Shown here piece by piece: positions 4,874 through 56,776 of a stretch of 64,000 bases of DNA. Source of the DNA: Acutalibacteraceae bacterium (GTDB lineage: Bacteria > Bacillota > Clostridia > Oscillospirales > Acutalibacteraceae); NCBI GenBank assembly GCA_045531265.1, contig JAZSDP010000078.1, forward strand, positions 27,610 to 91,609. Direction: 5' to 3'. The stretch's first letter is position 1; the number at the start of each line of letters is the position of its first letter. The translations under genes were made by a program, and so were the position numbers. The notes under the pieces were generated by a model. The model was not told where the DNA came from. It saw nothing but the letters and a program-made list of their open reading frames with translations, and did no database searches.

Positions 4874-4875
4874 TA

Positions 4876-25883: not shown

Positions 25884-25908
25884 CACTAAATCGGAACATT
25901 TAAACTCA

Positions 25909-26220: not shown

Positions 26221-26340
26221 ACCTATAGTTATAGGTGTCTCTATGGGCATTTTGCACCCTTTTTTAGGGTTCAGCTCGGTATTTATATAGGGAATCCTAT
26301 TTATAACATACATATTCTTTCATATAAGGAGGAAAATTTT

Positions 26341-29300
26341 ATGAAAGTTGGTAAAAAAGTACTAAGTTGCGTACTCGCTATCATTATGATAGTATCCAGC
26401 GTGTCAGTGTGTTTCGGCGTTCTCGGCGCAGGCAACACAATTGATAACCTCATGAACAGAATTGAGCTTAACCATGAAGCTCTGGCTGACTTCATACTTG
26501 AGGTTGAAACACTGGAAGCAAAGCTTGCGGCAGCTCAGACACAGGCTCTTAAGGAAGAGATCGGTGCTCAGCTGACGGAGGCTAAGAAGCGTATACCGCA
26601 ACAGGCAAATGCATCACAGTGGAAGGTTGAGGTTGACTCAGCGTCCGGTTCATGGACATGGGTTGCCCGTGCTTACGCTGAAGCAGCAAAGGTTGTTGTT
26701 CAGCAGAAGGATAAGCACACCTACTACGGCATTTATGCAGAGATTCTCTCTCAGGTTGACGCTGCAAGAGCAGGTAGAACTACCGCCCTTACAAAGGCTC
26801 AGTATGATGAGATTCTTAAGTATTTTGCCTTTGGTGAAACAGAAGAAGTAGCCGGCGGAGCATATGCAACTCCCAAAGTAATCACCCTTAATATCGGTGC
26901 AGGCTTTGACGTGCTCAAGTGGGCTCCTGATTACAACGAGATTCCTACAGATGCTGCTGAACTTCAGCTTTACAACAGCTGGGTTAAGTTCGGTATGTCC
27001 ACAGTAGGTGATGAAAACAACGGTCTTGTTGGTATTAATGAAGCTGATATCACATTTGATATGCAGAACCAGAACTCCGAAATGATTGCTCAGGCTCTTG
27101 ATGTTGTTAAGCAGTCAATCATTAAGTTCATTGCTCTTTCAGAAGAAGGTCTTACCGAGACCAACCCTGAAACAAATGAAGAAATTACATATCTTCCCTG
27201 GTTCACAACAAACTTCGCAGAACTTGCTGCAAACGATCCCGCTCTTCTTGACAAGACCATTATGCAGATTTCAGAGAAGATCGTTGAATTCGATACCGCT
27301 ATTGCAACTGCTCAGGTTGGTAACACCGAAGATATCTGGAACTCTTATGTAAGTCCTCATATCACCGGTAAAAAAACATGGGCTGAAGTTAACCGTTGGT
27401 ACGAAACAGAAATCGTTGGTTATATCGCAAAGGCTTATGCTACTCAGTTTAAGGCTCAGTTTGAGGCTGCCTTCGCAGCTGCTGATGCTCTGGGTGAAGC
27501 AGCTACAGGCGACCAGCTTTATGTATACTATCTTGAAGTTCAGGATATTCTTGCTGCACTTGACGAAACCGTTGCTTATGTAAACGGCGAATCCATCAAC
27601 ATCGCTGACCAGATCATCGATGCTTTTGACGGTGGCAGAGAATATTACAACAACATTCTTACAAGAAGAAATACTCTCGGTTATCACACAGCTTCAAAGT
27701 TCTCAACAGAATGGGCTGACAGATATAACGAAATCTATAACTTCAACCTTGTTGACTCCAAGGCTTCTGTTGCTATGGGCCACGTTTGGGAAAAGTGCGA
27801 CGGTACCTGCGGCACAACCTGTGACGGCAAGGGCAACGGTCAGGAAGACTATGTTGAAGGTACTGACTGTACATACGGTTGGGTAGATGCAAACGGCGAC
27901 GGCATTTTCACCGATGATGAAAAGACAACTGTTGCTCACTGTATCCATGTTGACTATAACAACGCTCTCGAATTCTATACAAAGGCCGCTGCTCTTGTTG
28001 CTGACTTTGAAGCAAAGGTATTCCCCCTTGTTACAAACGATGCAGGCGTAATTGCATTCGACCGTATTGCAACGGAAACTCTTAATGAGAAGAGCTGGAA
28101 TGCTTTCTATGCAACTTATCAGAAGGCAAACCTTAACCTCAACGGTGCTAAGTATATTGATATGAAGGCAAAGATGGATGCATTTATGGGTTCAATCCGT
28201 CTTTCCGGTGGTATGTCATACAACGTTATCAAAACTTATCACGATGAATTCGTAGCATTAGGTTACACAGAATGTAAGGATCTTTCAACTAACCCTGCTA
28301 CCAAGGATATCTTTGAAGAAATCTTCGGTAAAGCAGGTATGACTCCTTATGACAACTTCATAAATGACCTCAAGCGTCGTGCTGCTGTTCGTATTTATGA
28401 ACAGCTTGAAAGAATTGCTACATACTACGGCGAAGGTGGCAACAATGTTACATATTATAACTTCGAGTCAATCCTCGCCGCTGAAGCAGCTCTTGAAGCT
28501 CAGCAGGGTGCTCTCTTCACCTTCCTCAGAGCTAAGCCTGCTTACAATCCCGATGCTGACCAATTCTTCGATATCGTAAGAGATGAAGAAGGCAACGAGA
28601 TTTCACGCACACAGAAAGAAGGCGTTATCATTTATGATATCGATGACGACCTTGGTGCAAAGTACGAAGAAGTTTCTCCTTATACAGTTAGGGCTCAGGA
28701 GTTCAAGGATAACCTTGCTCTTATGAGAATGGAAGCTAACCTTAATCCTCTTGAAGAGTTCAGCTGGCAGGGCGATAAGACTATCCTTGCATACCTCTTC
28801 GACAGATACAACAACGCTAACAACTATTCCGGTTCTTACTATGAATATCTGTGGGTTAGCGGTAAGGGTAAGCTTGACTATGACGCTATTTCAGACCTTA
28901 TTGCAGAAGTTGGTCTCGGTCTCGGCGGTAAGGATACAGCTACTCTTATGGACGAAGTGGTTAAGAAGTTCGACAAGATGATCCTTTCCAAGGACCTTGG
29001 TTCACTTCTTGATGCACTTACAGCAAACTCTGCAACCGGTGAAGGTCTTCTCGGCACATGGGATATTACTTATACCTTCAATAACCCCGACGGTTCAACT
29101 ACCACAAGAACAAAGGGTGACAAGGTAGAAAACGTCCGTGAAATGCTCATCAACCTTATTATGGGCCTTCTTTACGGCGGTTCACTCCAGAATCTTCTTA
29201 TGTCCCTTTACGGCCTTCTCGGTAACGTAATTATGGACCTTGATATGGACATCCCTGTCCTCGGTCAGGTTGGTGCAAAGCTTCCCGAATATCTCCGTGG

Positions 29301-32300
29301 TGCTATTCCTCTTATGCCCCACTGGTTCACTGAAAACTGGAACGGCTACTCCTGTAACCAGACAGGTGTTCGTTGGTATAAGTGGTTCGACGGATCACTT
29401 CTCGGCTCATCATACAACTATGAAAATGCACTTCGTGTTCTCGCTCAGGCTCCCCGTCATGATTCAGGTAAGGACACCAAGTCATTCTGGGACAGCGAAA
29501 ACAGACCCAACTTCGGCACATATGCCGGTCTTCCCGAAGATGCTTGGGAAACCTATGAACCCGACGAAATCTGGCACGTAAGAAACAATGTTGACCTTTT
29601 CAAGTCACTTGCTGCCGCAGCCTGCGGTCTTGCTGCACCTCTCGGTGTTATCCTTTGCGCAAACGATGCAACACTCCGTGCAAAGTCAGATATTTTGAGC
29701 ATCGAACTTAATGCTATTGCTCATAACGCAGGTGACCCCCTGTATGACAGACTCTTCATTCCTCTTTATGAGCTTCTCGGTATTACTCAGTACAGCACAT
29801 CCAATCCCTACGGTTACAGAACCGGCAGCGAAATGAAGAACGCTACCGCTATTGCCGGCTACCTTGAAGGCGGCGACACTACACCTTATGTTCAGAACTA
29901 CGGTTATGACATGTGGTCATATGTTCTTACTCCGCTTCTTAACTGGATGGAAACCAAGCTCTTCGTTAATCCTCTTGAAACTATCCTTGGTCTTCTTCCC
30001 AATCTCTTCTGTGCTATTGAGTACAACCAGATTCTTCCCAAGATCAAGAACATTGCTCTTGAGTTCAAGCTTGACCTCTTCGGCGGTATCAGCCTTTACA
30101 CCCTTAAGGTTTGGGATCTTCTTGCTCCCCTTCTTGATAACCTCGGTCTTCAGCTCGATAAGGGTCTTGACGGCGTTATCAACATGCTCCTTCAGGTAAC
30201 AAAGACCAATAAGGCAACCTACGATGCCGAAATGGCTAAACCTAAGGAAGAGCAGAAAGCATTCCTTATGAAGTCCGTTCTTGATGCTAAGGGCAACAAG
30301 ATTTACGACCTTTACAATAAAGACGGCGACGTTATCCAATATAATGTAGATGTTGCAGCACTTACTGAGCAGTATCCTGACGGTCTTCCTAACGAACAGT
30401 ATACTTCTGAAAGAAAGGAAGTATATGTTGACAAGGACGGCAACTACTACTGGAAGCTCGGTCTTCTTGCTCAGACCCTCTTCGGCACAGGCAGCAAGGG
30501 CTGTAATGAAGGTTACCTTGAAATGCTTAACTTCAATAAGAAGTCAGGCCACGGTACAGTTCAGCTTTATGTTCCTGTTAACCGTATTGTTTCAATGGGT
30601 ACACTTACCCAGAAGACAGTTTACGGTACCAACAGCAACTGGACACTTTACCACATCAATGCTGACTCAGGTGACGTTCTTCTTGCCCTCTTCCGTTGGC
30701 TTATGAACGACGGCGTTGTTCCCAAGCTTCTTCCTCTTCTCAACGGCCTTCTCGGCGGCGGTGAAGCAACAGAAGAAGGTGGTTCAAGCGTTTCAATCAT
30801 TGATACAATCGTTCCCATTATCGACGGTCAGGCTGACACAGTTATCGCTATCCTTATTTCACTTCTTAACACATACGATGTAGGATACTTTAACTATGTT
30901 GACACATATAAAAACTTAGTTGATAACCTTAGCGGCGAAAAGCTCGAATACACAAACTTTGGCTCAAAGGATGCTGACAATGACGGTCAGCCCGACTTCG
31001 TCATCGGTAAATATCTCTCCGAGTCTCTCGCAGACATGGCTACCGCAGACGTTAACACAACTGACGAACAGAAGCTCGCCAAGGTTGACCTTGCAATTTC
31101 CAAGCTTGACGGACTTATCAATACAGTTGTTCCCTCAATCATCCCCGTTATTATGCCTATGCTCGATGACCTTCTTAAGGGTGACATCGGCGATATCGTG
31201 AAGCCTCTCCTTGAGCCTCTCAACGATATTCAGAAGGGCGACACTCTTGCAGACGTAGTAGCTGACATCCTTGTACAGGACGGCGTGATGCAGCTTCTTG
31301 CTGAGCTTCTCGTTGGTACCGGCGAACAGAAAGAGGAAACTCTTGAAGACGGCTCAAAGGTTCCCGCATTCCAGAAGGATGCAGACGGCAACTATGTTCT
31401 TGACGAAAACGGTCAGAAGATTCCTGTTATGGATACAGGCCTTCTCGGCGGTATCCTTGGCGGCGGCATGCTCGCAAACCTTCTTCCTGCTCTTGCAGAT
31501 ATGGACATTGACATCAGACCTCCTGCATTCTATGATGCAGCAGTTGCAGCAGGCTGCACAGGTATTTCCGATTGGATTCTTGGCTGCTACAACGATGCAA
31601 TTGCTCAGGGTGCAGATTTCAAGGGCGATTACCACAATATGGGTTGGGAATGGATGAAGGCTCCCGGCGAAAACCATAAGTGGTTCAATGTTGCCGAGGA
31701 TGCTACTGCAGAACAAAAGGTTGATGAATTCTTCAATCTCCTCGGCACACTCCTCGCTCCTCTTAACCCCATCCTCTTCCTCATCTTCAGCGGTCAGGAT
31801 CTTACCCTTCTTGATGAACTTACCATTGAAGGCGGACAGGGTTATCAGAGCGCAATGACTCTTCTTATCGAAAGCCTCGGCTTCGGTAAGGTTAAGATTG
31901 CCGGCACAAATTACACTGCTTCTATGTCCAGAAGCGATTACCTTGCATTCGTTCACGGCAGCACAGGCGGTACAGATGAAACCAAGATCCCCAAGGACGG
32001 CAGATTCTGGGCAACAGCTCACTCACCCCTTGCTCCTCTGTTCACAGCTCTCAGAGCATTCCTTGTAGGTGATGATGAAACAGGTGCACTCGGTCTTCTT
32101 GAAAGTCCTCTTACAGCACTTCTCAAGATGATCCCCAACCTTGCATATCTTCTCTATTCATACGAGACAGATGAGCTTGATGAAACAGGTGCAAAAGTTA
32201 AAACTAACAACCTTGCTCAGGCTGCTAAGAACCTTATTTCACCTGTACTTTCAGTTCTCAATATCATTGACCCCATTCTTTCAAGAGCTCTTGAACTTGA

Positions 32301-50300: not shown

Positions 50301-53300
50301 ACTTGATACACTTCTTGTATCAGTTCTCGGTATGCTTGGCACAGGCGATGACCTCGGTGCTCTTATCGATGGTCTTATTGCAGATGCTGATCTCGGTAAC
50401 CTTCTTATGAACCTCCTCGTTCCCGTACTCGCAGGTCTTGATCTCGATACAATCCTCGGTTATGTAAATGACCTTACAAACCTTGAGGTTGATATCGCAC
50501 CTCAGGCATTTGCAGATACTAAGTTCGGCTCCAAGCTCGGCGAATTCATCGGCGAAGCTGAAACATGGGCAGAGCTTGCTGCAGCTGCAGAATGGCAGCA
50601 GTATGTATACACATATGTTGTTAAGAACGAAGACGGTACCGATAAGATCGGTGAAGACGGTAAGGTAGTAACTGCTGAATACATCAGCAAGGACGGCACT
50701 CTTACCGAAGTTAACCTCGGCACTGAGAAAGAGCCTAATGTTGTTGCTCTTACAAAGGTTATGACAAATCTCACTGACCTTGAAGGTAAGAAGGCATACA
50801 CATATGGCGACGAAACTCTCTATCTTGCAGATAAGGAAGTAAAGGTTGCTGATGACAATACAGTAACAACAGTTATCAAGTCCGGCGAAGGCGACGCTGC
50901 TACAGAAGAAACTGTAACAATCGTTCCCGTTATGACTCACAAGACTCAGTTCGTTTCAACCTTCGATTGGAACATCAAGACTCTTGAAGATGCTGTTAAC
51001 TTCGCAGCTGACCTTCTTCTCCCGCTTGACGTTGTATTCAAGGTTCTCCTTGGCGGCAGCGAAATCATCGCTCTTGAAGACGGTGACACAATCAGACGTG
51101 CTGATATTCGCATCAAGGGCGGCTACGGCTACAACTATGCAATTCTCCCGCTTCTTGAAGCTCTCGGAGTAGATGCAATCAGCCAGTCCGAATACGATGC
51201 ACGTATCAACAGCGTATACCACGGCTCATCACTTAAGTACATCCTTGATGCAATCGTAGGCAGAGTTGACGAAATCCTTGCAACTCCCGTTCAGGAAGCT
51301 CTCGGTCTCTTCGCTAACCTCTTCTACTTCATCGGTTCAGAAGGCATCAACACCTTCGCTGCTAACCTCATCGCTCCCGTTCAGACTCTTCTTGAAGAAG
51401 TTTGTGACGTATATCCCATCTGCATTACCATCGACGGTAGCCAGATCGGTGTTGAAGGCGGTAAGATTATTGCAACAAGCTTTGATGCAGACTACGAAGC
51501 AGGTTCACTTGCAGAAGGCCTGAAGATTGACTTCAAGGCAGAGCACATCTCAGCTCTCCTTACAAACCTTCTCTCAGGTATTAAGATTAACGAGAAGCCT
51601 CTCGGCCTTACTCTCAACCTCAACTGGCTTGAGCTTGCAGCAGCAATGGCTAAGAGAGATGCAGAAGGTAAGATCATTTACACTGATTCTGCTATCGAAT
51701 ACGGTTATAAGAACACAACTGTTAACTCAACAGACCTTACAGCTCATAAGAATATTTCCGGTGATGCTGCAGCAACTCTTGTAACCCTTCTCAACACAAT
51801 TCTTTCAAATGAAAACGTTGCAGTTATCAAGAACCTTGTTAAGGATCTTCTTAAGGATGCTAACCTCGATGCAACAATCGAAAATCTCATCGACAACGTT
51901 CTCAGCGACAGAAATGCTATCATTAACCTTGTAGGTACTCTCGTTCTTGTTCTTACAGGCGAGCACGAAGTACGTGTAATGGATATGGTATTCAAGTTCC
52001 TCGGCGTAACTGACTACAATGTTGAAAACGCTGATACAGCAATTGCTTCCTTCGACAGACTTATCGGTAAGGCACTTCCCGTTGTTCTTGATATGTTTGC
52101 CGATACAAGCAAGCCTGAAGCAGAATGGACAATCCTTGAACAGATTGCCGCTTCCGGTGAAACAACACTTAAGGGTATTGCAGATTGGGCTCTCAACGAT
52201 CTTCTCTTCACAGACGATATGATGGCTACAATCACCGATGCACTCGTTGGTGCTCTTGCAGGCTTCCTTACAGAATCTCTTGCAGGTACTCTCGGCGATC
52301 TCCTCGGCGTTGACCTCAACCCCGTAGCCTTTGCACAGGCAACAGGTAACGCAGCTCTCATAGCTTATGTAACTGTTCCCGGCACAGGCACAGACGGTCT
52401 TGTAACATGGGCTGATGTTCTCGCAGCACACAGCACAACAACAACCGTTGACGGTAAGGAAGTAACAGAAATCGACAACGTATTCACAGGCGTTAATAAT
52501 AAGGATGCATTCCTTGATGCACTCTTCAGCCTGCTTACACCGCTCGATCCCGTACTCGGATTCCTCCTTCGCGGTTATGACCTTACAATCGGCGCAGGTC
52601 TCGGCGTAGACGATATCAAGCTCAAGGGTAACGACGGTTACTCCAATGCAATAAGCATTCTCTTCAAGGCTCTCGGCCTTGGCGAAATGGGCGCAACCTG
52701 GGTAGAAGCAACAGACGATATGAACGCTGTTGACGCTCTCAGACATACAATCGACTATGTATTTGCACTTGTTGATTCACTTTGCGCTAAGCCCTTCAAC
52801 ACAATCCTTGTTCTCCTCGGTAACCTCAGCTTCTTCGTAGCAAACGACGGTGTAGAGAAACTTATCAATAATCTCGTATCACCCGTTCTTTCACTCGTAG
52901 ATGCTCTCAGCGGTACAATCTCCAGAGCAGAACTTGATGCACTTCTCGTTTCACTTACTAAGAACGAAATGCTCACACTCAGCGGTATCCTCAATATCGC
53001 AGGTGACAACGGTGAAGCACTTGTAGAACTCCTCAACGGTATTATCCCCGGCTCCAAGGTTTACGAACCCATGAAGGATGCTGAAGGAAATATCCTTGTT
53101 GGCGAATATAAGGAATACACCAAGGAAGCTGTTGAAAATGATAAGAACAACACCTATGATGAAGTAGTGATTAAGGTTCTCGATGCTGACGGCAATCCCA
53201 AGAAGGATGACGAAGGCAACGAAATCACAAGAACTGCTTACTATAAGGTTGTTCACGTAATCAACGCACTTCCCGCAACCTTCTTCGTTGACCTTGCAAA

Positions 53301-56300
53301 GGCAGCAATTAAGGTTGATACACCCACAGGTCTTGTGGATCCCACTGATATCGGTAAGCCCGTTACTAAGTGGCATGTTGAAACCGGTGATACTCTCGTA
53401 TTCATCCTTTCAACCGTTCTTTCACAGGATGTTCTTGACATCCTCTCTAACCTCCTCGGTCTCACAGACGGTACAGTTAAGGATATCCTTAGCGGTCTCG
53501 TAGGTAAGGAAGAAGAGCTTCTTGATGTTCTCGTTTCACTTCTTGCTAAGTATCTTGTTGAATACAAGGCATATACACAGCCTGAACTCGATAAGATTAA
53601 TGTAACAACAGCTGAAACACATGATAACTTCAACGATATCGTTACAAATCTTGATGCTCTTATCCCGACAATTCTCAGCCTTGTAGAAATCGGCGGTAAG
53701 AAGTACGGCAGCCTTAACGAACTTATCAGCGGATTCATCACAGATGACATCGCAGATATGCTTGTAGGTATGATAGTTGAACTTCTCTCAGGTCTTCCCT
53801 CAGAGACAATCGACGAAATCCTCGGATATGTTAAGGAGCTTACAAACCTCAAGACTCTTGATATCAGCCCGAAGGCATTCGCAAATAACGACTTCGGTTC
53901 AAAGGTTAAGGCATTCTTCGAAGATGCTGCTGCAAAGGCAGGCACCACACTTGATAAGCTCACATGGGCTGAAGCTTGGGAAGCAACAAGCACAGTAGCT
54001 GACGATCCCGAAACAACTGATAAGGTTGAACGTAAATTCAACGGCTATGCTTGGGGCATTGAAGGTCTCAACGACCTTGTAGATCTCCTTTGCGACTTCA
54101 TCCAGCCTCTTGATCCTATCCTCCTCGTTCTTCTCGCAGGCGGTCAGGTAAGAGCTGACTTCGACGGTACAACCGTTGGCAGATCTATCAGTGCACTTGA
54201 TGAAATCAACATCATGGGCGGTATGGGTTATAACTACGCAATCATCCCGCTTCTTGAACTCCTCGGCGTTGACGCAATGAGTCAGGCAGCATATGATTCA
54301 GCAGTTAGCAACAACCACGGCAGTGCTCTCTACCCGATTCTTAACCAGCTTATCAGTACAGTTGAAAATGACATTCTCAAGTCACCCATCAACTGGCTTG
54401 CTAAGATTCTTGCAAATCTCACATATGTAATCGGCAATGATGATATCGGCACAATCGTTGATAATCTCCTTGCTCCCGTTAACCAGCTCATCGCTAAGGT
54501 TGACAAGGTATTCCCGATCGCTATCGACATCAACATAGGTGATATCGGTAACGAAACAGAATACAACAAGGTTGTAGACACCTACCTCGGCGTTGCACAT
54601 CCCGGTGTTGAGGCCGGTATCCACATCAGAGTTGAAGGCAAGGCTCTTGCAGATATGCTTACAGGTCTTCTTGAAGGCATTGAAATTGAAGGCAAGCCTC
54701 TTGGCATCAAGATTGATCTTGATTGGCTCAAGCTTGCAGCAATGGCAGGTGCTGATGCTGACAGCAATAAGAAGGTTGACTTCGAAACAACCAACTTCTC
54801 AACCAAGTATGATATTTACAACGGTGGTGCTTATAAGACCATCAAGGGTGACGCAGCTGACACCTTCGTAACTATCCTCAAGCTCGCACTCACTAAGGAA
54901 AATGTTGAAGCTATCCTTGGCGCACTCAATGTTGAACTTAGTCCCGAAATTAAGGATATTATCGACCAGATCGTTGAAGATCCCGCTAAGATTGTTGATA
55001 TCATTGCAAATCTCCTCGGCGGCAAGCTCGCTTACCAGCCGATCCAGAACAGACCTATTTCCGTAACAGGTGTTAACTACAACAGTTACTTCACCTTCAC
55101 AGAACAGAATGCAGATATCATTGCTAATAACCTTGATACTCTTCTTGTTCAGATTCTTGACCTTGCAGGCCTTGGCTCAATCAGACAGCTTCTCGGTCAG
55201 TTCATTAACAACGGAATGGTTAACCAGCTCCTTGACTTACTCGTAGGTCTCCTCGCAGGCGACTCCGTAGGACCTATCCTTAACACAATTGCAGGCATTG
55301 ACCTCGGCATTGAATTGCCGCTTACACTTCCCGCATTTGCAGCTAAGATCTCTGAACTCGCTAAGACAAGAGATTATCTTAAGGGTGCAGCAGCTCACCT
55401 TAATAAGGGTGTTGCAGCAGGCGGCGAAGATGCAACTTGGGCAAATGTAGGCTCCTTCCAGGATGCTAACGTTGATTGGAAGGTTAAGGACGGCGACCTC
55501 TACGGCTTCGTACAGGCTGTTGCAGGTATCCTTACACCGCTTAACGGTCTTCTTGAACTTCTCCTTATCGGCGAAGGCAAGTACCTTGACGTTCTTGGTG
55601 TTGTTAAGATCGGCGGCGGCAACGGTTACGACTACGGTATCATCCCGCTTCTTGAAGCATTCGGTCTCAAGTCAAGTGAAGTTAAGAATATCACAGAATA
55701 TAAGCAGGCTGTTGCTAAGGACGAAACTCAGCTTCTCGGCTATATCCTTAACAGAATCGCTTACTTCGCTGACGGTCTTCTTGACTCACCTGTAAATGAC
55801 CTTCTCACTATCCTCCCGAACCTTGCATATTACTTCTCCAACGAAGGTCTCCTTCTTACAGTGAAGAATCTGCTTGCTCCTGTTTACACCCTTGTAGACA
55901 CAATCACAAAGGTTCTCGGTGTTGATCTTGAAAGCTTCCTCAAGCTTGAAAAGCTTCTCAGCAATATCGATCTTGGTATCGTTGTATTCAACAACAAGTA
56001 TGATTTCAAGATTCCTGAAATTGATTGGCTCAAGCTTGCTGCACAGGGCGGCGATAAGGCTCAGGAAGTTTCAACTTCACGTTCAATCGCTGCAAACTCC
56101 TACACTAAGGAAATGCGTGCGGATGAATACCATGCATATACTCAGGCTAACCCGAATGCTCCTCATAAGAGCACTCAGAAGAACATCGTAGCAGATAAGG
56201 GCGATACACTCACACTTATCTTCACATGGCTGCTTGAAATGTTCGGCACTCAGCATAACAGAGACGCTCTCGTTAACTGGATTGTTGATGTATTTGAACT

Positions 56301-56697
56301 TAAAGCAGGTGCTAAGGAAACTGTTCGCTACGCTGTAAACGAACTGTTCAACAGAACAGCAGCTTATGACGTACCCGATATCATCGTTTCCGCACTCTTC
56401 GCAGCACTTGGTATGGCAATCGGTCTTGATGCTGCTATTACAGGCGATGTAATCACCGTACAGCAGATCTGGAAGGATCTCTTCGGCATCATCGGAAATA
56501 ACTCAGGCGACGGTTGTAAGTATGCAAGCATCGCTAAGGTTATGGAAGACCTGACCGGTGTCTGGGATGACACAATCGGTGACGATGAAGATCACGAAGA
56601 CGCAGTTGAAGATGCAGAAGAATCACTCAACTGGTTCCAGAGACTTATTAAGAAGATTAAGGAATTCTTCCAGAAGATTTTCGGTATCTTTAAATAA
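26341..56697 (+). CDS. giant acidic modular protein (10,118 aa) of unknown function, with an N-terminal signal/anchor and a C-terminal hydrophobic segment plus basic amphipathic helix
   Basis: A single stop-free frame spans 30,357 nt. AAGGAGG (26326-26332) lies 8 nt before the ATG. The N-terminus is MKVGKKVLSCVLAIIMIVSSVSVCFGVLGAG. Codon usage matches the neighbouring genes. The gene has its own promoter and a terminator at 56747-56776. The internal motif periodicity is only coherent in this frame. Confidence 0.93.
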   Translation: MKVGKKVLSCVLAIIMIVSSVSVCFGVLGAGNTIDNLMNRIELNHEALADFILEVETLEAKLAAAQTQALKEEIGAQLTEAKKRIPQQANASQWKVEVDSASGSWTWVARAYAEAAKVVVQQKDKHTYYGIYAEILSQVDAARAGRTTALTKAQYDEILKYFAFGETEEVAGGAYATPKVITLNIGAGFDVLKWAPDYNEIPTDAAELQLYNSWVKFGMSTVGDENNGLVGINEADITFDMQNQNSEMIAQALDVVKQSIIKFIALSEEGLTETNPETNEEITYLPWFTTNFAELAANDPALLDKTIMQISEKIVEFDTAIATAQVGNTEDIWNSYVSPHITGKKTWAEVNRWYETEIVGYIAKAYATQFKAQFEAAFAAADALGEAATGDQLYVYYLEVQDILAALDETVAYVNGESINIADQIIDAFDGGREYYNNILTRRNTLGYHTASKFSTEWADRYNEIYNFNLVDSKASVAMGHVWEKCDGTCGTTCDGKGNGQEDYVEGTDCTYGWVDANGDGIFTDDEKTTVAHCIHVDYNNALEFYTKAAALVADFEAKVFPLVTNDAGVIAFDRIATETLNEKSWNAFYATYQKANLNLNGAKYIDMKAKMDAFMGSIRLSGGMSYNVIKTYHDEFVALGYTECKDLSTNPATKDIFEEIFGKAGMTPYDNFINDLKRRAAVRIYEQLERIATYYGEGGNNVTYYNFESILAAEAALEAQQGALFTFLRAKPAYNPDADQFFDIVRDEEGNEISRTQKEGVIIYDIDDDLGAKYEEVSPYTVRAQEFKDNLALMRMEANLNPLEEFSWQGDKTILAYLFDRYNNANNYSGSYYEYLWVSGKGKLDYDAISDLIAEVGLGLGGKDTATLMDEVVKKFDKMILSKDLGSLLDALTANSATGEGLLGTWDITYTFNNPDGSTTTRTKGDKVENVREMLINLIMGLLYGGSLQNLLMSLYGLLGNVIMDLDMDIPVLGQVGAKLPEYLRGAIPLMPHWFTENWNGYSCNQTGVRWYKWFDGSLLGSSYNYENALRVLAQAPRHDSGKDTKSFWDSENRPNFGTYAGLPEDAWETYEPDEIWHVRNNVDLFKSLAAAACGLAAPLGVILCANDATLRAKSDILSIELNAIAHNAGDPLYDRLFIPLYELLGITQYSTSNPYGYRTGSEMKNATAIAGYLEGGDTTPYVQNYGYDMWSYVLTPLLNWMETKLFVNPLETILGLLPNLFCAIEYNQILPKIKNIALEFKLDLFGGISLYTLKVWDLLAPLLDNLGLQLDKGLDGVINMLLQVTKTNKATYDAEMAKPKEEQKAFLMKSVLDAKGNKIYDLYNKDGDVIQYNVDVAALTEQYPDGLPNEQYTSERKEVYVDKDGNYYWKLGLLAQTLFGTGSKGCNEGYLEMLNFNKKSGHGTVQLYVPVNRIVSMGTLTQKTVYGTNSNWTLYHINADSGDVLLALFRWLMNDGVVPKLLPLLNGLLGGGEATEEGGSSVSIIDTIVPIIDGQADTVIAILISLLNTYDVGYFNYVDTYKNLVDNLSGEKLEYTNFGSKDADNDGQPDFVIGKYLSESLADMATADVNTTDEQKLAKVDLAISKLDGLINTVVPSIIPVIMPMLDDLLKGDIGDIVKPLLEPLNDIQKGDTLADVVADILVQDGVMQLLAELLVGTGEQKEETLEDGSKVPAFQKDADGNYVLDENGQKIPVMDTGLLGGILGGGMLANLLPALADMDIDIRPPAFYDAAVAAGCTGISDWILGCYNDAIAQGADFKGDYHNMGWEWMKAPGENHKWFNVAEDATAEQKVDEFFNLLGTLLAPLNPILFLIFSGQDLTLLDELTIEGGQGYQSAMTLLIESLGFGKVKIAGTNYTASMSRSDYLAFVHGSTGGTDETKIPKDGRFWATAHSPLAPLFTALRAFLVGDDETGALGLLESPLTALLKMIPNLAYLLYSYETDELDETGAKVKTNNLAQAAKNLISPVLSVLNIIDPILSRALELDIESLLDSFLNVENMLNDLISGLVDGSDLDTGEDIVVTKFVDFGALAVYGGKANKDAISHTTGVGGTFTEFTGSPAQTLITLVRSIMTDDLIDSFVTMFMDYYATTEQGQQITDENREDWARVRDIVLALSVRAKTPATFENGNYNGTGVDLIVGLVVDLFTDYVPGQGVEMFYQKMADEGYSDAIMEKYGIQHVPYQWENITKDENDDLLFTPDDVEDTLDSFDAVIRKAAPDVIGILTSQGILDLSSLGIELDGEATTLYGVLTQLVEDFLFTDEIMATVANLLASLLGGGMVGDLLPLIKDAGIDITAVSIYKRTKTNSALREFMSYNITGGVDANGQITVDGEKRDITWADIADAHGYQAYEYDEHGNVVMDGDDAKLAYTKKLSVDKDGKPVYELDEDGEIKLDAQGNKIQAQEDDLDKPTMKLITSIYVQAKKDGKFVYTYKGKDAEGNSADLEYLSAFANLESFAVQVFEEDGTTPKKDENGKEVWTKYDLKPVYTDEEIPGAWSWDFDDVESRGYKNHIYGKLSYFVDSVWEIIGGLEDILEALFFGADTNKAVKLFDTLNIEGTDGFEDTLLPLLRGFGLDAILSNLNNSPATDADGNALVDPKGDGSVYTMLEELNDERKVTYGDENVNAIPANLVKGNAGMRRSLGTWRNAATNEIEAEAFKNFAIGRDWFAEEQNGTIYFDQAAGYDMATFLKVFLNYVLYFVEILASYPISTLMSALPTLAYFIVGDGLNEIVSNLLRFLTVLTDRLAPILAIDVNDIGAGLVDMLGTNEWGTFQEIFKFYVNEDGQKVYDEITYDENGKVVTVQKPAAEKNISLTETLLSFVANIKIDLDSDGVQESTITRFINAEAEKEAWALINANTDDKGVVNKDKLEEARQMRTAAVTAWLESVVALGEPFKGDYTDANGVDHNVPAKYHGYVKIDAYNGQISVPKNDMFMFILDFVFENTTLQEVLGDLLGYDITDENGTDADLLDELLTNVFRNPDYLVDLIVALFTTYTVAPNKDIPFIDIDEYHYNFYDEDGQTTYQDILPQIQAGTYAGSEISRVKTAYAIDNLDKLVGTVLNLFKKDLVKEGGLFDGIFTEEDDISLSVAVNGLLEDLLFTDDMINDLLGMLVGLLSGEGVGDIIGIVTDILESAAGIDISTAAFANNDTLESIIMKDGKAQTWSEIAEANKQYEYKYETIDEDGETVLKDGEPVYGTYFDKSATASSAVVDADGDGDEDDTVTLIPVYNQKQAQNADKEYEYYYFASEEDKTNDIRTPYFDKEQNKTEYVIPATDDAEEQKFVLTAVMVDDTDSQKTAVKFDKQWNIVPELADDATAEQKAAASKQARDNFVTVLWDVLEPLSPVLELLFTGRNLEIYGEITIRGFDGYEGFILPLINALAAPVYTKADGVTPYLDTNKYYPTQEAFELAVYGADKAPGGEDENADNTQVLLQSILDALLALVDSLCDRPISTIATLLPYLARFLESKGIDTILSNLLSPITAITDMIKNVYNLDIMGLIKGLLQGLAADMNKDAAAQTAAGFIEEKIDEAAEANANAGVALAAEEDDILNNDSGIDYSKYTFMEIIWDILEAVQIDLGDGKKLAISDLINDQFFVKLAACAWYDDEALGYVMIKGIDYADGEDEDINDSKVTNEQRDTDYYVDRETVLLFVLDNLLFQESVRDLIGGLIGDMEFTDEALTELKNNKDESKVLDTDYLLPVLLYGVFMDGEALERLLIDLLSWYDVEYAPERVDKTTPNSTLPEVDWDATGLNEAELENLPKQLDDLVAAVLPLLLELLPTFGVDLGIDLGGATDIKHIVENLIGSLFTDTVDEKTGEVKNGLATTLFTLLVKLFGGSNLDDILSMVYELTGGDEHAINLTLAYFKDSSTAIAKYFNEYKDAEGKTKAINTWAEAYEAFKVKVDFDAEKNFSYAEEDVNKENKIFDKNDGDYLYAVDDKGNIVHTYAQDAEGKAIPATDKGTTAVCPDCGETFYITAGDGKVLEGEDAANVVAYADGEFAYEYQWDIKLTGTNSFGVKDYTTALNLLGDIVTPLVPVLKLLLVEDGDLVILDGVTISAGDGYDRFVIPVAEMLGIEIENDKYAVAEFTNAEFGDFIVDGIVKLINKIVSSPIQTIIDLLPNLAYFITSNGLAQAVEQMLAPLLTLVDMVNDISGAKITLKNGTELVALDVYELLVGLLKDVIDLKGAKTAGEIITNLLTADGLEDLIMGLVKNEDGTTKLGFLDGLFADIVAKTVGITDVETARYFGSYVQGGHRMVKGVYATRANTVLQLISELILAENGLIFEILDLAGLDLNDPANATIKTVIDGLTGDNRYCILEVLLNYFNHYDVEGTIIDYLSFEAKEFAYETYTTDSTLSARKVRRAIKKLDQAVLALVPELLPLLEEIEFLKGALASVKDPDKGYEGVTIQKVVEAILSDLAFNDETMTMLVGTIIGLLGGEGLSGTLASLSPVLSKLVDVNIAPAAVADNAQTAGATALAQLIGEAIAGTEAARSSSYVDDDGLTVSTVREATWADIAEYYADNAYFYIVENVGEEYVLNNKTGDKVPVFNTETNEDGVKVPVFAEGEEAPDNAEDLFVSEDGYLMRKVYTYSIEKHFDKNEYEDGKVITIDGEEVTLYTRAIATDKDGNIIWADAEALKPTFQRVMDGEKYGFNWTYTVADDEATADVDESKTYSGVVYQNDATDADGFAEVEIDGKKVEVAVEEAFVMSGTQVLGATETDWGFDDADTFEEKKDVFLGELYGIVKAVEPVVDFLFHGEDITIQSTVNGNTVDAITLKGGEGYRYALYPLLQALAADQMGNSLVSGVDYGALKGTVGTLEAIVDGVFNVVENLAAGPVEYILTLLPSLSYFIKSDGIRLFVENLASPVFALLDVAEPAVGALLDDLLGGLLSPLVGDYMPAEYVNMEGRKVDDNGTPDDTTDDFKVYTLDEILHIAGKDGTNLVAILNNLVGGLIVKTEEGEEIEPITILPANFFADYVAYAVEIGSSFGQKMFYDLEVIKAGGKFGGNVGDTIAIPQADYTEDLKEYYTIVGDTRYSVSSWKVDIADSLVYLLQSVASADLLGVLAGDDHEEKVAKNDLIAIILDNLIKGNNNGLTIAEILVSLFEGYTVKYVPLNGIYIPIDHTGMTDAADIPVSLDNVILEALPVILPLLAGENVEEGSLMDTLTTALADLGENENAIKALVDGLINSFLTDDLVRGIVEMLVGILGNETIDMVLGLVKIGDHNLTAPEFKAQIDAHFAGKADYAAALAAIDSIIGEYGSWAEVAKANTKYAYTYVIKEATATAAAELGTYYAVSDKLGGTYQEIDGKEYLLTKKASDVKNDKGEVIGSVHETAVKFDEALTFGVDGADDKLTALINAFTVLLEPLTEVLQLVLQGKTLTLLSSNGKYVADSFEDIYGAETGQSNGELPDDDRDTADVGVIMGDGFIELRGSKGYDEGLLALAEAIFGQIKGTELEDKIPSGAEFNAYTDIEDILGAVVNIIMALVEGLENGPITFLADHLAGLLYFLASDNVNNLVNNVLALANGLLEVLEPLTGKDNIIDLLGMLGVDLSILEINKLLEMLTNLIRAPKDFEVTKAEDGSYTYVRDEKTVAVTTEEIKTKEVEKDGAKVTVEYVTVDTGLDLTIDLAMLKDLVAALGEYAVIDSLRTSANIGLATNNAGEYVNKDGQVIEGDAITTGKLTTVVGCRAHFIDGLLTFALSDNIIGKLLVKDETDPDNILNDLIDALTAEDAADGLIKFLNQLTSKYLVEYTVLAALDEELALTKLYTYYADSVNAPEGAHKRTIKKTDAEKTIDNLNNLVGPILELVGMGNLEDLVGGLVFTDDMVNMLVGLLAGLLPSLEGGDIANILDIVANVLGEEIDLSAATYAENAVLAPFFADVEASAEDGVITWADVAAHYTKYVYTYTIPADPEVEDSKPETVTVYAAEGETVYTTEDGKQYAITPVYEQKADKDGNLVYTTGDAEIIATKDYTIKTENGVTTATTKVDGADVVYTVTPVYTTTQATKAVYDFAWGMDAIEGDDDESKVLKQAHKFVDIIAAFLQPVDFILEVLLAGGTNTGDAENAKSISAFDEINIMGGSGYNYAIIPLLETLGVPNSMILTQAQYEEKIKTEGTLAPILDILLEYVIGGLNAPLSFVADLLTNLFYTVSQNGLTTIVSNLIAPVSELVRALEDTLPVAIKIDLTQIFVEGGEIFKIMLGDDVAINGATVGLDLNLDNNTIEDLLFGANGVLKNLAPDLVINFNIREFVRAAVAVDENGDIIYVDSLVDTDYDILTPENVEWRDRIVVDRADAVINFLDSILTTETINSLLTMLEVDLDEMLGEDMSFLADIINDAIEAPSTLIDTIVKLLSTAYTVEDIMVLYDELTEADYNYDNEVASKDDVALVLNKLDAVINNAIEPLLGILSGMDNMPALVTDIAAAIENGEAEATIGGVLDFVLGDLIFTDEIVNTVFGLIVGLLGSMDAKTFDLINNLLGEILHINLDPVEFARSIVAATGDTKVADYIASFPATEDTVLTWADIAAANKKLVYTYTIKATEEGAEDKVVEVYFDLDRTNETAYTAEDGVTYTLNKKMVEKDGVATDEQATKVVMTHNWGVDAAAAADKKDVFLGAILEILAPFGAVLDWLFCGEDIVLVYEGVTLHGGNAYDNVLVPLVKALGVEIDTDAELDAQNKTHAVDRVEALINGIFALVDKLADNPINTIVELVTGLSYFIASGGVAEAVEGIAAPIFGLVSTLEAIAPMSTINEIIAELAKDVKLPGDKPLTIDNIINIAGENGEGLVALINSLIGKIEIEDEAGNIINLNLLPDDFFLQVAQYGVNIETVAEVTAEMIAGGVDYQPDNKYVTEWSVDKADAIMYVLSTVCSDSFLKSLCSLMNQPEDSTVGGILLGLAGKQNNVVDILVTLLTEYTVTYTDFTRAPIEKEEVTHTAPMTEENLEAALAVLDKLIPSVIGLVGLDADSLQSLLGELLEGLDLGNLLADLLVPLLAGLDLGEILGYVEELTNISVDLSPEAFTHNKFGSKLAEFIGNAETWADIEAKYLNYIYTYELTDKDGNVEIGEDGKAKTAEYFSIKSDLDGKTVTVGEGDDAKEVKLSKKLVETTVKAEDGTENKVNVHDTKMKSDFDWELGLTGVDASFDGVIALVSDLLYPVDFVLGLLLTGDRIEALEEIGITGGRGYNFAIIPLLEAFGVEVITEAEYVEQAKTNGHLNYILTALFGKIEDELLVSPVKTLLSMLANLFYLVGSNGINNIAENLLGFANYLLVKAEPVFKVGISIDLSEMGLVGGKVLKTTFDADENGKPMPYVSSMAAGIRVNVSADALSKLLGDLIADLKLVDIDGDGVNDPLGLSLDLDFTELAAKMAATNEDGTIKKIATSQITTEGAPATWFNIEGDVEDTFTTLIDTILTDENAFALANLIESLLKDVDFSGMDGVDENGEANDEINVKGILNDVLYQKDGIKKVLGAVVLLLSGQYTVVKPDTAYKFLGILSYFLEGDDTGDKLNNAIDRLDAIIAREVPEILTMFIDGDSATGILKSLVDAADGATGLDDMLDSLLKELAFTPDNFAALMEMLVKAIAGFLTADLTGTLNDLLGIDLAPAAFATATGNAKLVAYVENALDADNEAKDEPAELTWADVWAANSTDGKANEYDWGVNDQSGFISAVLSLLIPLNPILDFIFCNGAIELLDGSVRLPGGDAYNKALIPLFKALGVDLATAETTTEALDALVDGLIGNTGLVGKLADAPFRTILELVAGLSYLLANDNLEPIIRNIAAPVFSILDLLKDVITMDQIDGILEGFIGMSLTDIIEIGNNGGANLVDLVNGLLGGIEVRDENGKLIDTVDALDSDFFVELSKYAIDVTDPEGLVDPTNVGEDANAWTVDAAETLMFILDNVLDETFLKVLCGKIAPDASEDDMLVGILTSLADKEIDLVEVILMLLENYTIRYNRYQQTTLTGAAADYTAFADNAAKVEAALPNAITALDTLLVSVLGMLGTGDDLGALIDGLIADADLGNLLMNLLVPVLAGLDLDTILGYVNDLTNLEVDIAPQAFADTKFGSKLGEFIGEAETWAELAAAAEWQQYVYTYVVKNEDGTDKIGEDGKVVTAEYISKDGTLTEVNLGTEKEPNVVALTKVMTNLTDLEGKKAYTYGDETLYLADKEVKVADDNTVTTVIKSGEGDAATEETVTIVPVMTHKTQFVSTFDWNIKTLEDAVNFAADLLLPLDVVFKVLLGGSEIIALEDGDTIRRADIRIKGGYGYNYAILPLLEALGVDAISQSEYDARINSVYHGSSLKYILDAIVGRVDEILATPVQEALGLFANLFYFIGSEGINTFAANLIAPVQTLLEEVCDVYPICITIDGSQIGVEGGKIIATSFDADYEAGSLAEGLKIDFKAEHISALLTNLLSGIKINEKPLGLTLNLNWLELAAAMAKRDAEGKIIYTDSAIEYGYKNTTVNSTDLTAHKNISGDAAATLVTLLNTILSNENVAVIKNLVKDLLKDANLDATIENLIDNVLSDRNAIINLVGTLVLVLTGEHEVRVMDMVFKFLGVTDYNVENADTAIASFDRLIGKALPVVLDMFADTSKPEAEWTILEQIAASGETTLKGIADWALNDLLFTDDMMATITDALVGALAGFLTESLAGTLGDLLGVDLNPVAFAQATGNAALIAYVTVPGTGTDGLVTWADVLAAHSTTTTVDGKEVTEIDNVFTGVNNKDAFLDALFSLLTPLDPVLGFLLRGYDLTIGAGLGVDDIKLKGNDGYSNAISILFKALGLGEMGATWVEATDDMNAVDALRHTIDYVFALVDSLCAKPFNTILVLLGNLSFFVANDGVEKLINNLVSPVLSLVDALSGTISRAELDALLVSLTKNEMLTLSGILNIAGDNGEALVELLNGIIPGSKVYEPMKDAEGNILVGEYKEYTKEAVENDKNNTYDEVVIKVLDADGNPKKDDEGNEITRTAYYKVVHVINALPATFFVDLAKAAIKVDTPTGLVDPTDIGKPVTKWHVETGDTLVFILSTVLSQDVLDILSNLLGLTDGTVKDILSGLVGKEEELLDVLVSLLAKYLVEYKAYTQPELDKINVTTAETHDNFNDIVTNLDALIPTILSLVEIGGKKYGSLNELISGFITDDIADMLVGMIVELLSGLPSETIDEILGYVKELTNLKTLDISPKAFANNDFGSKVKAFFEDAAAKAGTTLDKLTWAEAWEATSTVADDPETTDKVERKFNGYAWGIEGLNDLVDLLCDFIQPLDPILLVLLAGGQVRADFDGTTVGRSISALDEINIMGGMGYNYAIIPLLELLGVDAMSQAAYDSAVSNNHGSALYPILNQLISTVENDILKSPINWLAKILANLTYVIGNDDIGTIVDNLLAPVNQLIAKVDKVFPIAIDINIGDIGNETEYNKVVDTYLGVAHPGVEAGIHIRVEGKALADMLTGLLEGIEIEGKPLGIKIDLDWLKLAAMAGADADSNKKVDFETTNFSTKYDIYNGGAYKTIKGDAADTFVTILKLALTKENVEAILGALNVELSPEIKDIIDQIVEDPAKIVDIIANLLGGKLAYQPIQNRPISVTGVNYNSYFTFTEQNADIIANNLDTLLVQILDLAGLGSIRQLLGQFINNGMVNQLLDLLVGLLAGDSVGPILNTIAGIDLGIELPLTLPAFAAKISELAKTRDYLKGAAAHLNKGVAAGGEDATWANVGSFQDANVDWKVKDGDLYGFVQAVAGILTPLNGLLELLLIGEGKYLDVLGVVKIGGGNGYDYGIIPLLEAFGLKSSEVKNITEYKQAVAKDETQLLGYILNRIAYFADGLLDSPVNDLLTILPNLAYYFSNEGLLLTVKNLLAPVYTLVDTITKVLGVDLESFLKLEKLLSNIDLGIVVFNNKYDFKIPEIDWLKLAAQGGDKAQEVSTSRSIAANSYTKEMRADEYHAYTQANPNAPHKSTQKNIVADKGDTLTLIFTWLLEMFGTQHNRDALVNWIVDVFELKAGAKETVRYAVNELFNRTAAYDVPDIIVSALFAALGMAIGLDAAITGDVITVQQIWKDLFGIIGNNSGDGCKYASIAKVMEDLTGVWDDTIGDDEDHEDAVEDAEESLNWFQRLIKKIKEFFQKIFGIFK
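29150..55900 (+). repeat. array of ~15 divergent protein-level modules (about 465-810 aa each) inside the giant ORF
   Basis: Each module has four recurring elements. The first is a Gly/Leu-rich LFTDD-type segment. The second is a TWA[DE][IV] motif followed by a variable, Y/T/E/D/G-rich insert. The third is LLxPLxPxLxxLLxG...[GA]GxGYxxx[IL]xPLxxALG. The fourth is PxxTxLxxLPNLxYFxxSxG...NLxAPV. The GxGY cores start near 29731, 31831, 34012, 36436, 38515, 40678, 42643, 44587, 46288, 47881, 49441, 51118, 52627, 54217 and 55612. Confidence 0.8.
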
Positions 56698-56746: not shown

Positions 56747-56776
56747 CCCCCACTCATCACGAGTGGGGGCGTTTTT
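56747..56776 (+). terminator. rho-independent terminator after the giant gene
   Basis: A 9-bp stem (cccccactc / gagtggggg) with an atcac loop is followed by cgTTTTTa. Confidence 0.85.

Follow-up and report, generated by a model that had tools for sequence, protein, structure and literature searches.

A 10,118-residue protein of tandem ~530-residue modules in the gut clade Acutalibacteraceae, predicted to be exported and tethered to the membrane

Is a reading frame of 30 kb in an uncultured gut bacterium a real gene, and if so, what kind of protein does it encode? The question is raised by a stretch of 64,000 nucleotides (nt), called here 'the window', from an Acutalibacteraceae bacterium (Clostridia, Oscillospirales; assembly GCA_045531265.1, contig JAZSDP010000078.1, positions 27,610 to 91,609 of the forward strand). 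It contains an open reading frame (ORF) of 10,118 codons, whose product we call the 'giant'. A preliminary description, based on the letters of the sequence, had proposed that this ORF is a true gene encoding a motif-less, largely helical and envelope-associated protein, and that it is the best candidate for an undescribed system in the window. We report that the giant is a conserved gene, that its product is made of tandem modules belonging to a family without detectable relative among known domains or folds, and that a second gene directly upstream encodes a conserved partner. We also propose that the giant is probably a surface protein held at the membrane by its C-terminus. The coordinates of all features are collected in Table 1.

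The giant ORF is a real, conserved gene under purifying selection. The probability of 10,118 stop-free codons arising by chance is ~1e-251 at the base composition of the ORF. Its relative synonymous codon usage (RSCU) follows that of nine flanking housekeeping genes (r = 0.91, compared to -0.17 and 0.04 for the two off-frames). The closest locus (L003, from Acutalibacteraceae DOME_MAG_2612) is colinear with the gene over 12.6 kb and shares 92% amino acid (aa) identity with it over 4,213 aligned residues. The ratio of non-synonymous to synonymous substitution rates (dN/dS) is 0.175 against this locus and 0.25 to 0.27 against six other orthologues of ~65% identity (>4,000 codons), and it is uniformly low along the body of the protein. 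With purifying selection over >4,000 codons and giant orthologues in ~70 genomes, the earlier claim of a real gene rather than a chance frame holds, as do those of a canonical AAGGAGG ribosome-binding site and of codon preferences like those of the neighbouring housekeeping genes. The gene had also been credited with its own promoter and terminator. A hairpin followed by a T-run is indeed found downstream; the two sigma-70-like promoters upstream are matches to the consensus and nothing more, and shuffled sequence is expected to contain at least as many.

Could the ORF nevertheless result from a chimeric assembly or a repeat that collapsed, or be a pseudogene in decay? All family members derive from metagenome-assembled genomes (MAGs), and in the assemblies of two relatives a frameshift divides the giant gene into 7397 + 1203 aa (L001) and 9030 + 771 aa (L002). 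Against this, the ORF is unbroken here and in ~65 independent assemblies from different studies, and the giant is colinear with the DOME_MAG_2612 locus as well as, over 7,700 aa, with P0009, a 7,429-aa fragment from another MAG that aligns to residues 2404-10118 as a single high-scoring segment pair with 59% identity. Internal DNA repeats in the gene are at most 75% identical, so that none is near-identical enough to mislead an assembler, and collapse or chimerism is therefore very unlikely; dN/dS, moreover, is well below 1. We consider an artefact effectively refuted. The positions of the frameshifts differ between relatives (~9700-10030 in L001 and L040, ~9760-10020 in L002, the latter a metagenome contig), and they may be sequencing errors or real disruptions.

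Far from being motif-less, as had been thought, the protein shows a clear tandem organisation into modules of ~530 aa. A hidden Markov model (HMM) of the module gave 16 matches on the giant, of which 14 are near-full, one is truncated and one partial; the protein has ~15 copies in all. The last six modules alternate between two subtypes, with a super-period of ~1,060 aa. Aligned with one another (alignment A2), the modules are 21 to 42% identical and share motifs such as LxPLxPVLxxLLxG, IxIxGGxGYxxAIxPLxEALG, LxNLxYF, NLxAPV, VDxADT, LFTDD and TWAD. Their conserved columns consist of G, P, L, Y and W, which suggests a structural rather than a catalytic role. Identity is highest in the stretch made up of the shortened last module and the C-terminal domain, the most conserved part of the giant (99% to L003, 83 to 86% to L004). 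The unique N-terminal region, which had no match in the Pfam scan, is 23 to 29% identical to the N-termini of P0012, P0015 and P0029.

These data bear on the possibility that the protein is a passive spacer of variable length, comparable to the stalks of 'periscope' proteins, in which recombination would tune the number of modules and thereby the distance of a head from the cell. The number of modules does vary widely across the family, from 2 in members of 850-910 aa to 8-9 in P0015, 12-13 in P0012, ~15 in the giant and ~17 at most, and none of the invariant residues looks catalytic. The modules of the giant, however, are old and diverged, both in protein and in DNA. Orthologous modules of different species are far more alike (59% for P0009) than paralogous modules within the giant, which implies that each position in the row of modules is maintained on its own; periscope proteins, in contrast, have near-identical repeats that vary fast. 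The low and uniform dN/dS along the body also speaks against a spacer, and we find this explanation improbable.

Table 1. Features of the giant gene, its product and the upstream partner gene (nt, positions in the window; aa, residues of the protein)
Feature	Position (nt)	Strand	Details
Partner gene	18579..25883	+	Predicted 2,434-aa secreted protein; Pfam and NCBIfam matches; signal peptide MKNQFKKSLSLIMAVLMVLSCWVWVAPTKAEA
Partner C-terminal tail	25761..25880	+	KCECSCHRNNFWGGFFRFFQKIIKLFTGKASCCADPDSRI; Cys-flanked F-rich amphipathic helix
Intrinsic-terminator-like hairpin 3' of partner gene	25908..25939	+	14-bp stem, then T-run
Two overlapping sigma-70-like promoter matches	26192..26229	+	TTGAAA-17-TATACT with extended TG; TTGACT-17-TATAGT
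Ribosome-binding site AAGGAGG	26326..26332	+	8 nt 5' of ATG; direct sequence reading
Giant ORF	26341..56697	+	ATG start; 10,118 sense codons; no ambiguous bases; span includes stop codon
N-terminal signal peptide or signal anchor	26341..26433	+	aa 1-31, MKVGKKVLSCVLAIIMIVSSVSVCFGVLGAG; highest hydropathy peak in protein
Unique N-terminal region	26434..28878	+	aa ~32-846 (~850-aa region); no internal repeats; includes Cys patch and DANGDGIFTDDE
Degenerate module copies	28879..31347	+	aa 847-1001, partial (E = 4e-4); aa 1071-1669 (E = 1e-19); module HMM
Thirteen full tandem modules	31660..55500	+	aa 1774-9720; 503-755 aa each; self-BLAST, jackhmmer, HMM, alignment A2
Full modules 1-5			aa 1774-2443, 2487-3241, 3281-3984, 3987-4616, 4705-5323
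Full modules 6-10			aa 5321-5996, 5994-6587, 6575-7100, 7103-7652, 7648-8187
Full modules 11-13			aa 8185-8700, 8695-9234, 9218-9720
Shortened last module and conserved C-terminal domain	55459..56625	+	First third of unit (aa 9707-10023), then domain to ~aa 10095; module HMM
C-terminal basic F-rich amphipathic helix	56626..56694	+	aa 10096-10118, LNWFQRLIKKIKEFFQKIFGIFK; acidic stretch just before; proposed membrane anchor
Intrinsic-terminator-like hairpin 3' of giant gene	56747..56769	+	GC-rich 9-bp stem (7 GC pairs), then T-run

The module family has no detectable relative among known domains or folds. Searches of Pfam, NCBIfam and PHROGs with the two 5,000-aa halves, each of 11 modules, N- and C-terminal slices and shorter relatives gave no credible match: isolated weak matches to GDH_ACT3, GEVED and DUF5751 were inconsistent between module copies, and a single weak match in PHROGs (E = 0.003) concerned a family of unknown function. 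All PDB sequences, searched by phmmer and by profile, were likewise without a match to the giant. The preliminary description had reported no known signature and had made its proposal depend on a confident HMM match to a characterised adhesin or fibre family not being obtained; on both points the searches, for the whole protein, per module and per terminus, came back negative.

Structure prediction was carried out with AlphaFold2. A first model, of one module (aa 7101-7651) with 11 paralogous rows, was mostly helix, and at a predicted local distance difference test score (pLDDT) of 55 it was too poor for interpretation in Foldseek. A second one covered aa 9234-10118, with a 26-row alignment of orthologues, paralogous modules and small relatives. 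It reached a mean pLDDT of 71.7 and a predicted TM-score of 0.56, with 552 residues at pLDDT >=70. The predicted module consists of ~20 helices together with a conserved beta hairpin, which carries the GGxGY motif, and a small sheet, and the two models thus agree with the earlier suggestion of a largely helical protein. With the two models, Foldseek found nothing at E < 0.1 in PDB or BFVD. The top neighbours, all non-significant, were alpha-solenoid proteins in PDB (E >=0.32, TM-score <=0.12, probability <=0.08) and tape-measure proteins in BFVD (E >=0.13, TM-score <=0.10).

How widespread is the family? A profile of the C-terminal 885 aa of the giant, run against one genome per GTDB species, detected 72 loci in ~70 species-level MAGs, nearly all labelled Acutalibacteraceae, Oscillospiraceae, Ruminococcaceae or Clostridia and sampled from the guts of humans, ruminants (including rumens), rabbits and others. 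In ~65 of the 72 loci the frame was open across the whole 10-kb upstream flank. We searched 1.84 billion representative proteins (clusters at 50% identity) exhaustively with HMMER and the module profile, which yielded 628 representatives at E <=1e-3, 367 of them at E <=1e-30. The family thus numbers at least 628 clusters. Almost all are 2,000-7,700 aa long and have 5-17 module matches; the smallest, P0186 and P0190 (850-910 aa), consist of a signal peptide, two modules, a transmembrane (TM) helix and a basic tail. The giant belongs to this family, having modules in tandem and a signal peptide combined with a C-terminal helix (or, in other members, a TM/basic tail). A word-index homologue search recovered fewer proteins than the exhaustive one (8 with the 885-aa query and 7 with the module profile). 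A metagenome scan with the N-terminal 800 aa of the giant as a single sequence gave nothing; repeated with alignment A4, it gave three loci (L082, L083, L084). As to whether length and module number would be conserved in related genomes, a check that the preliminary description had proposed, giant orthologues do exist, whereas module number is not constant. The roe-deer rectum MAG RGIG4739 has two giant-gene copies on different contigs (L004 and L007), 78% and 69% identical to that of the window in the C-terminal part, which points to paralogy or to a mixed bin.

In 20 sampled clusters of the family, most members were unnamed and every source-named one was a 'hypothetical protein' from Clostridia, Oscillospiraceae, Acutalibacteraceae or Eubacterium MAGs; no cultured isolate turned up. 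The literature on giant bacterial genes, including a giant-gene preprint (10.1101/2023.11.21.568195) and the preprint on the 'Hodor' megaplasmids (10.64898/2026.02.21.707213), describes other giant proteins of Clostridia (with RCC1, Flg_new, YG or dockerin domains, or with S-layer/MBG domains on megaplasmids) and not this module family. 'Undescribed' is apt for the giant, a modular protein of a large unannotated family, with a new C-terminal helix motif and a conserved partner.

The composition of the giant (L 12.0, A 9.8, D 9.2, G 8.1, V 7.7, T 7.2, E 7.0, K 5.4, R 1.5 and C 0.3%) gives it a net charge of ~-950. The preliminary description had called it rich in D/E/L/A/G/T and poor in K/R; it is indeed acidic, rich in L, A, D, G, V, T and E and low in R, but its K content is not low. 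The protein had been said to be nearly Cys-free outside two short patches. Cys is rare (n = 31), and only one patch is real (aa 486-534); the second is looser (aa 1005-1106) and the others are scattered singles. As for short motifs, a scan of all 10,118 residues confirmed the absence of HExxH, Walker A and LPxTG, whereas GxSxG, said to be absent, occurs three times, at chance level. There is one chance match to GGxGxD and a single, internal match to [LIVSN]Px[TA]G, at aa 8679. A perfect EF-hand/dockerin-type calcium loop (DANGDGIFTDDE, aa 516-527), the sole such loop in the protein, is enclosed by the real Cys patch, CDGTCGTTCDG...C...C (nt 27796-27942).

Both ends of the protein are informative as to its location. 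The signal peptide (MKVGKKVLSCVLAIIMIVSSVSVCF) is without a YSIRK/GxxS motif and almost invariant, MKLGKKxLSxxLAIxMIVTSVSVCF, in orthologues that are otherwise 23 to 29% identical. A lipobox at Cys24 was rejected for the giant, which has Val at position -1; some members of the wider family (..AFSC..) do fit the pattern. At the other end, the last 23 residues form an ideal amphipathic helix on a helical wheel: L, W, F and I occupy one arc of 160 degrees, and K, R, Q and E the other, the net charge is ~+5, and an acidic run precedes the helix. The maximum Kyte-Doolittle hydropathy of the last 60 aa is 0.26, that is, amphipathic and not TM. A TM helix at aa 10014-10032 was also considered and rejected: it would have only ~16 apolar residues between two Asp, and its equivalent in the wider family is polar. 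The motif LNWFQRLIKKIKEFFQKIF is near-invariant in ~65 species whose proteins are otherwise 45 to 60% identical.

Among the tails of 148 family representatives, 98 have this F-rich amphipathic motif, which can be generalised as ..NGFIxFFQKIIxFFKKIxxFFKNLF, 13 have a TM helix followed by KKKK, and 37 are truncated or other. That an amphipathic helix and a TM helix with a basic tail interchange at the same position is an argument that the tail serves as a membrane anchor and that most of the chain lies outside. Moreover, the succession signal peptide-modules-TM-basic tail would break the positive-inside rule unless the modules were outside the cell. A precedent exists in Escherichia coli PBP5, which after export stays attached to the cytoplasmic membrane, on its outer face, through an amphipathic helix at the C-terminus (PMC2909392). 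We infer from these sequence features that most of the giant is extracellular and that the predicted helix acts as its tether on the outer side of the membrane, in keeping with the envelope association and N-terminal signal or anchor of the preliminary description. Other tails were also seen. The TM-type C-termini of P0026, P0068, P0076, P0079, P0083 and P0132 share (G)N(F/Y)YW(V/A)YW directly before the TM helix and KKKK, a three-part layout reminiscent of dedicated sorting signals. A third, W/F/M-rich type (..LxWLxxFMPIIRWVLKLFGVLG; P0121, P0127, P0139, P0140, P0142, P0145, P0154) differs from both the F/K helix and the TM/basic tail, and a Cys-flanked variant of the helix is found in P0042, P0059 and P0070.

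A cationic, amphipathic terminal helix could also belong to a secreted membrane-active protein, such as a toxin or bacteriocin acting on the lipids of another cell, or to a carrier of lipids or other hydrophobic ligands. The module region is in addition rich in L (12 to 14%) and in amphipathic helices, with hydropathy peaks just under TM level. We regard such a function as very unlikely: the C-terminus is conserved and not polymorphic, no immunity-like small gene lies downstream, no toxin, Rhs, LXG or MACPF domain was found, there is no resemblance to beta-groove lipid-transfer proteins, and a true TM anchor, as some relatives have, precludes release.

The giant is not alone. Directly upstream, on the same strand, a homologue of the partner gene (1.7-2.5 kaa) was present in all six loci of the core subfamily with visible upstream DNA (the window, L082, L083, L084, L085 with P0015, and L086/L087 with P0012). 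The partner of the window matches the upstream ORFs of L083, L084, L085 and L086 with E values of 1e-27 to 1e-48, and the same tail is found in L082. Its start was taken at the signal-peptide Met (18579); the ORF listing begins at a GTG (18495). The protein contains Listeria-Bacteroides (Flg_new) repeats, TCxxxGxxxxxCxxCG...GH units and a C-terminal Ig-like/CarboxypepD_reg part. Between aa ~1450 and 2280, many of these four-Cys units (..GH-x(n)-TCxxxGxxxxxCxxCG..) are interleaved with the Flg_new repeats; they are kept in the L083 and L084 homologues, are covered by no Pfam model, and resemble extracellular knots of a zinc-ribbon-like or disulfide type.

Every partner orthologue closes with CxCxCH(K/R)xGFxxxIFRFFQKIxKLFTGxxxCCxDPD, which amounts to the helix of the giant with Cys residues on both sides, and an HMM of giant-family C-termini matches the partner tail with E = 4e-5 (tail set) or 3e-4 (ORF-tail scan). 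The site of tethering is thus probably common to both proteins. In a set of 120 database relatives of the last 700 aa of the partner, the Cys-flanked tail was found in the orthologue P0213 only, and among 1,649 ORF tails (1.9 Mb of loci) the helix motif was confined to the giant family and the partner; a general sorting signal was rejected on this distribution. Both the conservation of the partner and the shared tail motif are direct observations; the undescribed system of the preliminary description is thus not made up of the giant alone. Otherwise, no downstream partner, secretion, sortase or processing gene was consistently linked to the giant across loci. Synteny around it is seen only in its closest relatives (L003, L004), and the neighbours differ in L001, L002, L075, L077 and L079.

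The tail motif might instead serve as a signal for sorting or recognition, with a partner or processing enzyme devoted to reading it, in the manner of the sortase, exosortase and rhombosortase systems, so that the giant and its upstream neighbour would go to the wall, the S-layer or the medium. This would account for the near-invariance of the motif in otherwise divergent proteins, for its presence on an unrelated adjacent protein, where CxCxCH and CCxDPD clusters flank it, and for its restriction to two protein families; the TM-type relatives, often with YWxYW before the TM helix and a basic cluster, also resemble tripartite sorting signals. However, no candidate processing enzyme or transporter is conserved beside the gene, the neighbours differing between loci, the sorting-signal models of NCBIfam gave no match, and tethering to the membrane is the simplest way to account for an amphipathic helix being replaced by a plain TM anchor. 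We hold a sorting function of this kind to be rather unlikely.

Membrane tethering being preferred, the following scheme can be proposed. The basic n-region and hydrophobic core of the signal would place the chain, by Sec export, outside the monoderm cell of this gut Acutalibacteraceae. The C-terminal basic amphipathic helix would lie in the cytoplasmic membrane, at its outer face, as the tether of the giant, and the ~15 mostly alpha-helical modules, for which an elongated shape is assumed, would form a long acidic fibre or scaffold running through and beyond the wall, of which the unique N-terminal region would be the membrane-distal end. The Flg_new partner would be tethered alongside by the same kind of helix, and together the two could make up a structure by which the cell attaches or its surface is organised. 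We put the chances slightly above even that the giant is a membrane-tethered, megadalton helical surface fibre or scaffold, probably working with the partner in a two-component surface structure. Its export, topology and anchoring are deduced from sequence comparison; the fibre shape, the role in adhesion or as a scaffold and the interaction with the partner are speculative.

Several observations weigh against this scheme. The giant shows no domain that could be recognised as ligand-binding or adhesive. The near-invariance of the terminal helix, in species only 45 to 60% identical overall, exceeds the need of non-specific lipid binding and could mean that the helix has a specific protein partner or is handled by a processing machinery. 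A terminator hairpin lies between the partner and giant genes, so that co-transcription is not necessary, and members of the broader family (P0023, P0158, P0186) have no partner and variable neighbours. Finally, the confidence of the AlphaFold2 models is moderate, and the last 109 aa, which include the helix, have pLDDT <50.

A bolder proposal, which we find possible and place just short of an even chance, combines two ideas: that the ~530-aa unit is a new fold that builds megadalton surface fibres across an uncultured clade of gut and rumen Clostridia, and that the F-rich helix is an unrecognised anchoring or sorting signal, bare on the giant, Cys-flanked on the partner and interchangeable with YWxYW-TM-KKKK, that co-localises both proteins into a two-component surface organelle.

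The remainder of the window has a metabolic character. Upstream of the giant are the glycogen genes glgP and glgB-glgC-glgD-glgA (5146-18182). A glgB-glgC-glgD-glgA cluster is also found in L075 (34874-40566), downstream of a distant family member (P0023, 7,691 aa) that is preceded by YfhO and two CotH genes; this adjacency in both places may be old synteny or coincidence. The only Rfam match in the window is a full-length Gut-1 RNA (RF01706; 12332-12405, minus strand; 66.8 bits, gathering score 50), just upstream of glgB (start 12442). Between it and the queH-HAD segment (9546-10796, minus strand) lies ~1.5 kb (10800-12330) without an ORF of >=100 aa on either strand, which is unusually long for a genome as compact as this one. 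No tRNA was found in the window, and a 552-aa ORF (1081-2739, minus strand) had no Pfam match. Downstream of the giant, two overlapping tandem genes of the endonuclease/exonuclease/phosphatase family (58321-60086, minus strand; 304 and 290 aa), homologues of which are found downstream of the giant in L007, L008 and L056, are followed on the plus strand by a tandem of two class I c aminoacyl-tRNA synthetase genes, one GluRS-like (60269-61912, 547 aa, TTG start) and the other GlnRS-like, with tRNA-synt_1c_C domains (61926-63581).

Giant repetitive surface proteins as such are not surprising, and the function of this one is still inferred. A gene of ~30 kb would nevertheless amount to ~1% of a typical genome of this clade (2.5-3 Mb). 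Dozens of species maintain it without interruption and under purifying selection, so its cost must be repaid by an important function. Acutalibacteraceae and other Oscillospirales are abundant in human and ruminant guts and largely uncultured, and their contacts with food particles, mucus and each other are poorly known; a surface fibre tethered by an amphipathic helix and acting with a conserved adhesin-like partner is one hypothesis that can now be offered. The module family is invisible to current annotation, having neither a Pfam or NCBIfam model nor a structure. The module and the C-terminal helix motif could provide annotators with two new models, and the two-module members of the family are a tractable target for structural biology.

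How does the giant compare with known systems? Several classes were considered and set aside. Sortase-anchored proteins (MSCRAMM, SRRP) carry LPXTG, which occurs nowhere in the giant, and its tail is amphipathic. For wall anchoring by SLH, CWB2 or choline binding, SLH, CW_binding_1 and CW_binding_2 were not found in Pfam or NCBIfam, and for a cellulosome or amylosome scaffoldin Pfam gave neither cohesin nor dockerin, the single EF-hand-like loop being all that was seen. An adhesin of the type I secretion system with RTX/BIg domains (LapA, SiiE type) was rejected in view of the N-terminal signal peptide and the lack of any Big/RTX match in Pfam. No domain of polymorphic toxins (Rhs/YD, LXG, contact-dependent inhibition) was found, the C-terminus is the most conserved part, and the gene downstream encodes a class II aldolase. 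A phage tail tape-measure protein does not agree with the chromosomal metabolic context, given only the weak PHROGs match and BFVD neighbours at E >=0.13, nor does a bridge-like lipid-transfer protein (AsmA/TamB/VPS13) with mainly helical models and no match in Pfam or Foldseek.

Other systems resemble the giant in part. Alpha-solenoids with HEAT/ARM repeats (CAND1, importins, nucleoporins) are likewise all-helical and made of extended repeats, but they are eukaryotic and cytoplasmic, with a repeat of ~40 aa instead of ~530 aa, and none was a significant Foldseek match. The Listeria-Bacteroides repeat (Flg_new/InlB B-repeat) proteins of Clostridia include the partner, whereas the giant has no such repeats. 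Like the giant as predicted here, the PBP5/PBP6 class of E. coli is Sec-exported and has a short C-terminal amphipathic helix at the outer face of the membrane (PMC2909392). There is no homology, and the helix of the giant, a predicted anchor, is longer, F-rich, strongly basic and far more conserved, and is common to two unrelated neighbouring proteins. The conjugative 'Hodor' megaplasmids encode paired giant secreted proteins of >7,300 aa and ~2,600 aa (10.64898/2026.02.21.707213). As here, gut Bacillota encode two very large secreted proteins by genes close together, and the sizes are similar; the Hodor pair, however, is plasmid-borne, carries S-layer and MBG (YGX) domains and is associated with sortases and additional Sec genes, whereas the locus described here is chromosomal (glycogen operon, aminoacyl-tRNA synthetases) and without such domains, and no sortase is found in the window.

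The strongest resemblance is to Ebh of Staphylococcus aureus and Embp of S. epidermidis, proteins of ~1 MDa with an export signal, a negatively charged, elongated rod of tens of helical bundles and a predicted C-terminal TM anchor (PMC7587433). These and the giant have in common a length of ~10,000 aa, an N-terminal export signal, a monoderm host, a negatively charged body of helical repeats and a C-terminal anchor, predicted in both, that is not of the LPXTG type. They differ in the repeat, which is a triple-helix bundle of 125-170 aa in Ebh/Embp and a ~530-aa unit of ~20 helices and small beta sheets in the giant, and in the anchor, a TM segment as against an amphipathic helix in most members of the giant family; the giant also has a conserved upstream partner and an uncultured gut anaerobe as host. 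FIVAR, GA and DUF1542 had no Pfam match at E <=0.01 in the whole giant and no consistent one at E <=1 per module or terminus, and no YSIRK signal was detected. The Ebh/Embp structures 2DGJ, 6GV5 and 6GV8 were not returned by Foldseek, and the PDB sequence search was without Ebh/Embp entries. As the defining domains of that family were tested for and are absent, Ebh/Embp is an analogue and not a homologue. Built from a module without detectable relative, the giant resembles, in kind, the known giant surface proteins of monoderm bacteria, and Ebh/Embp may be considered its closest functional analogue.

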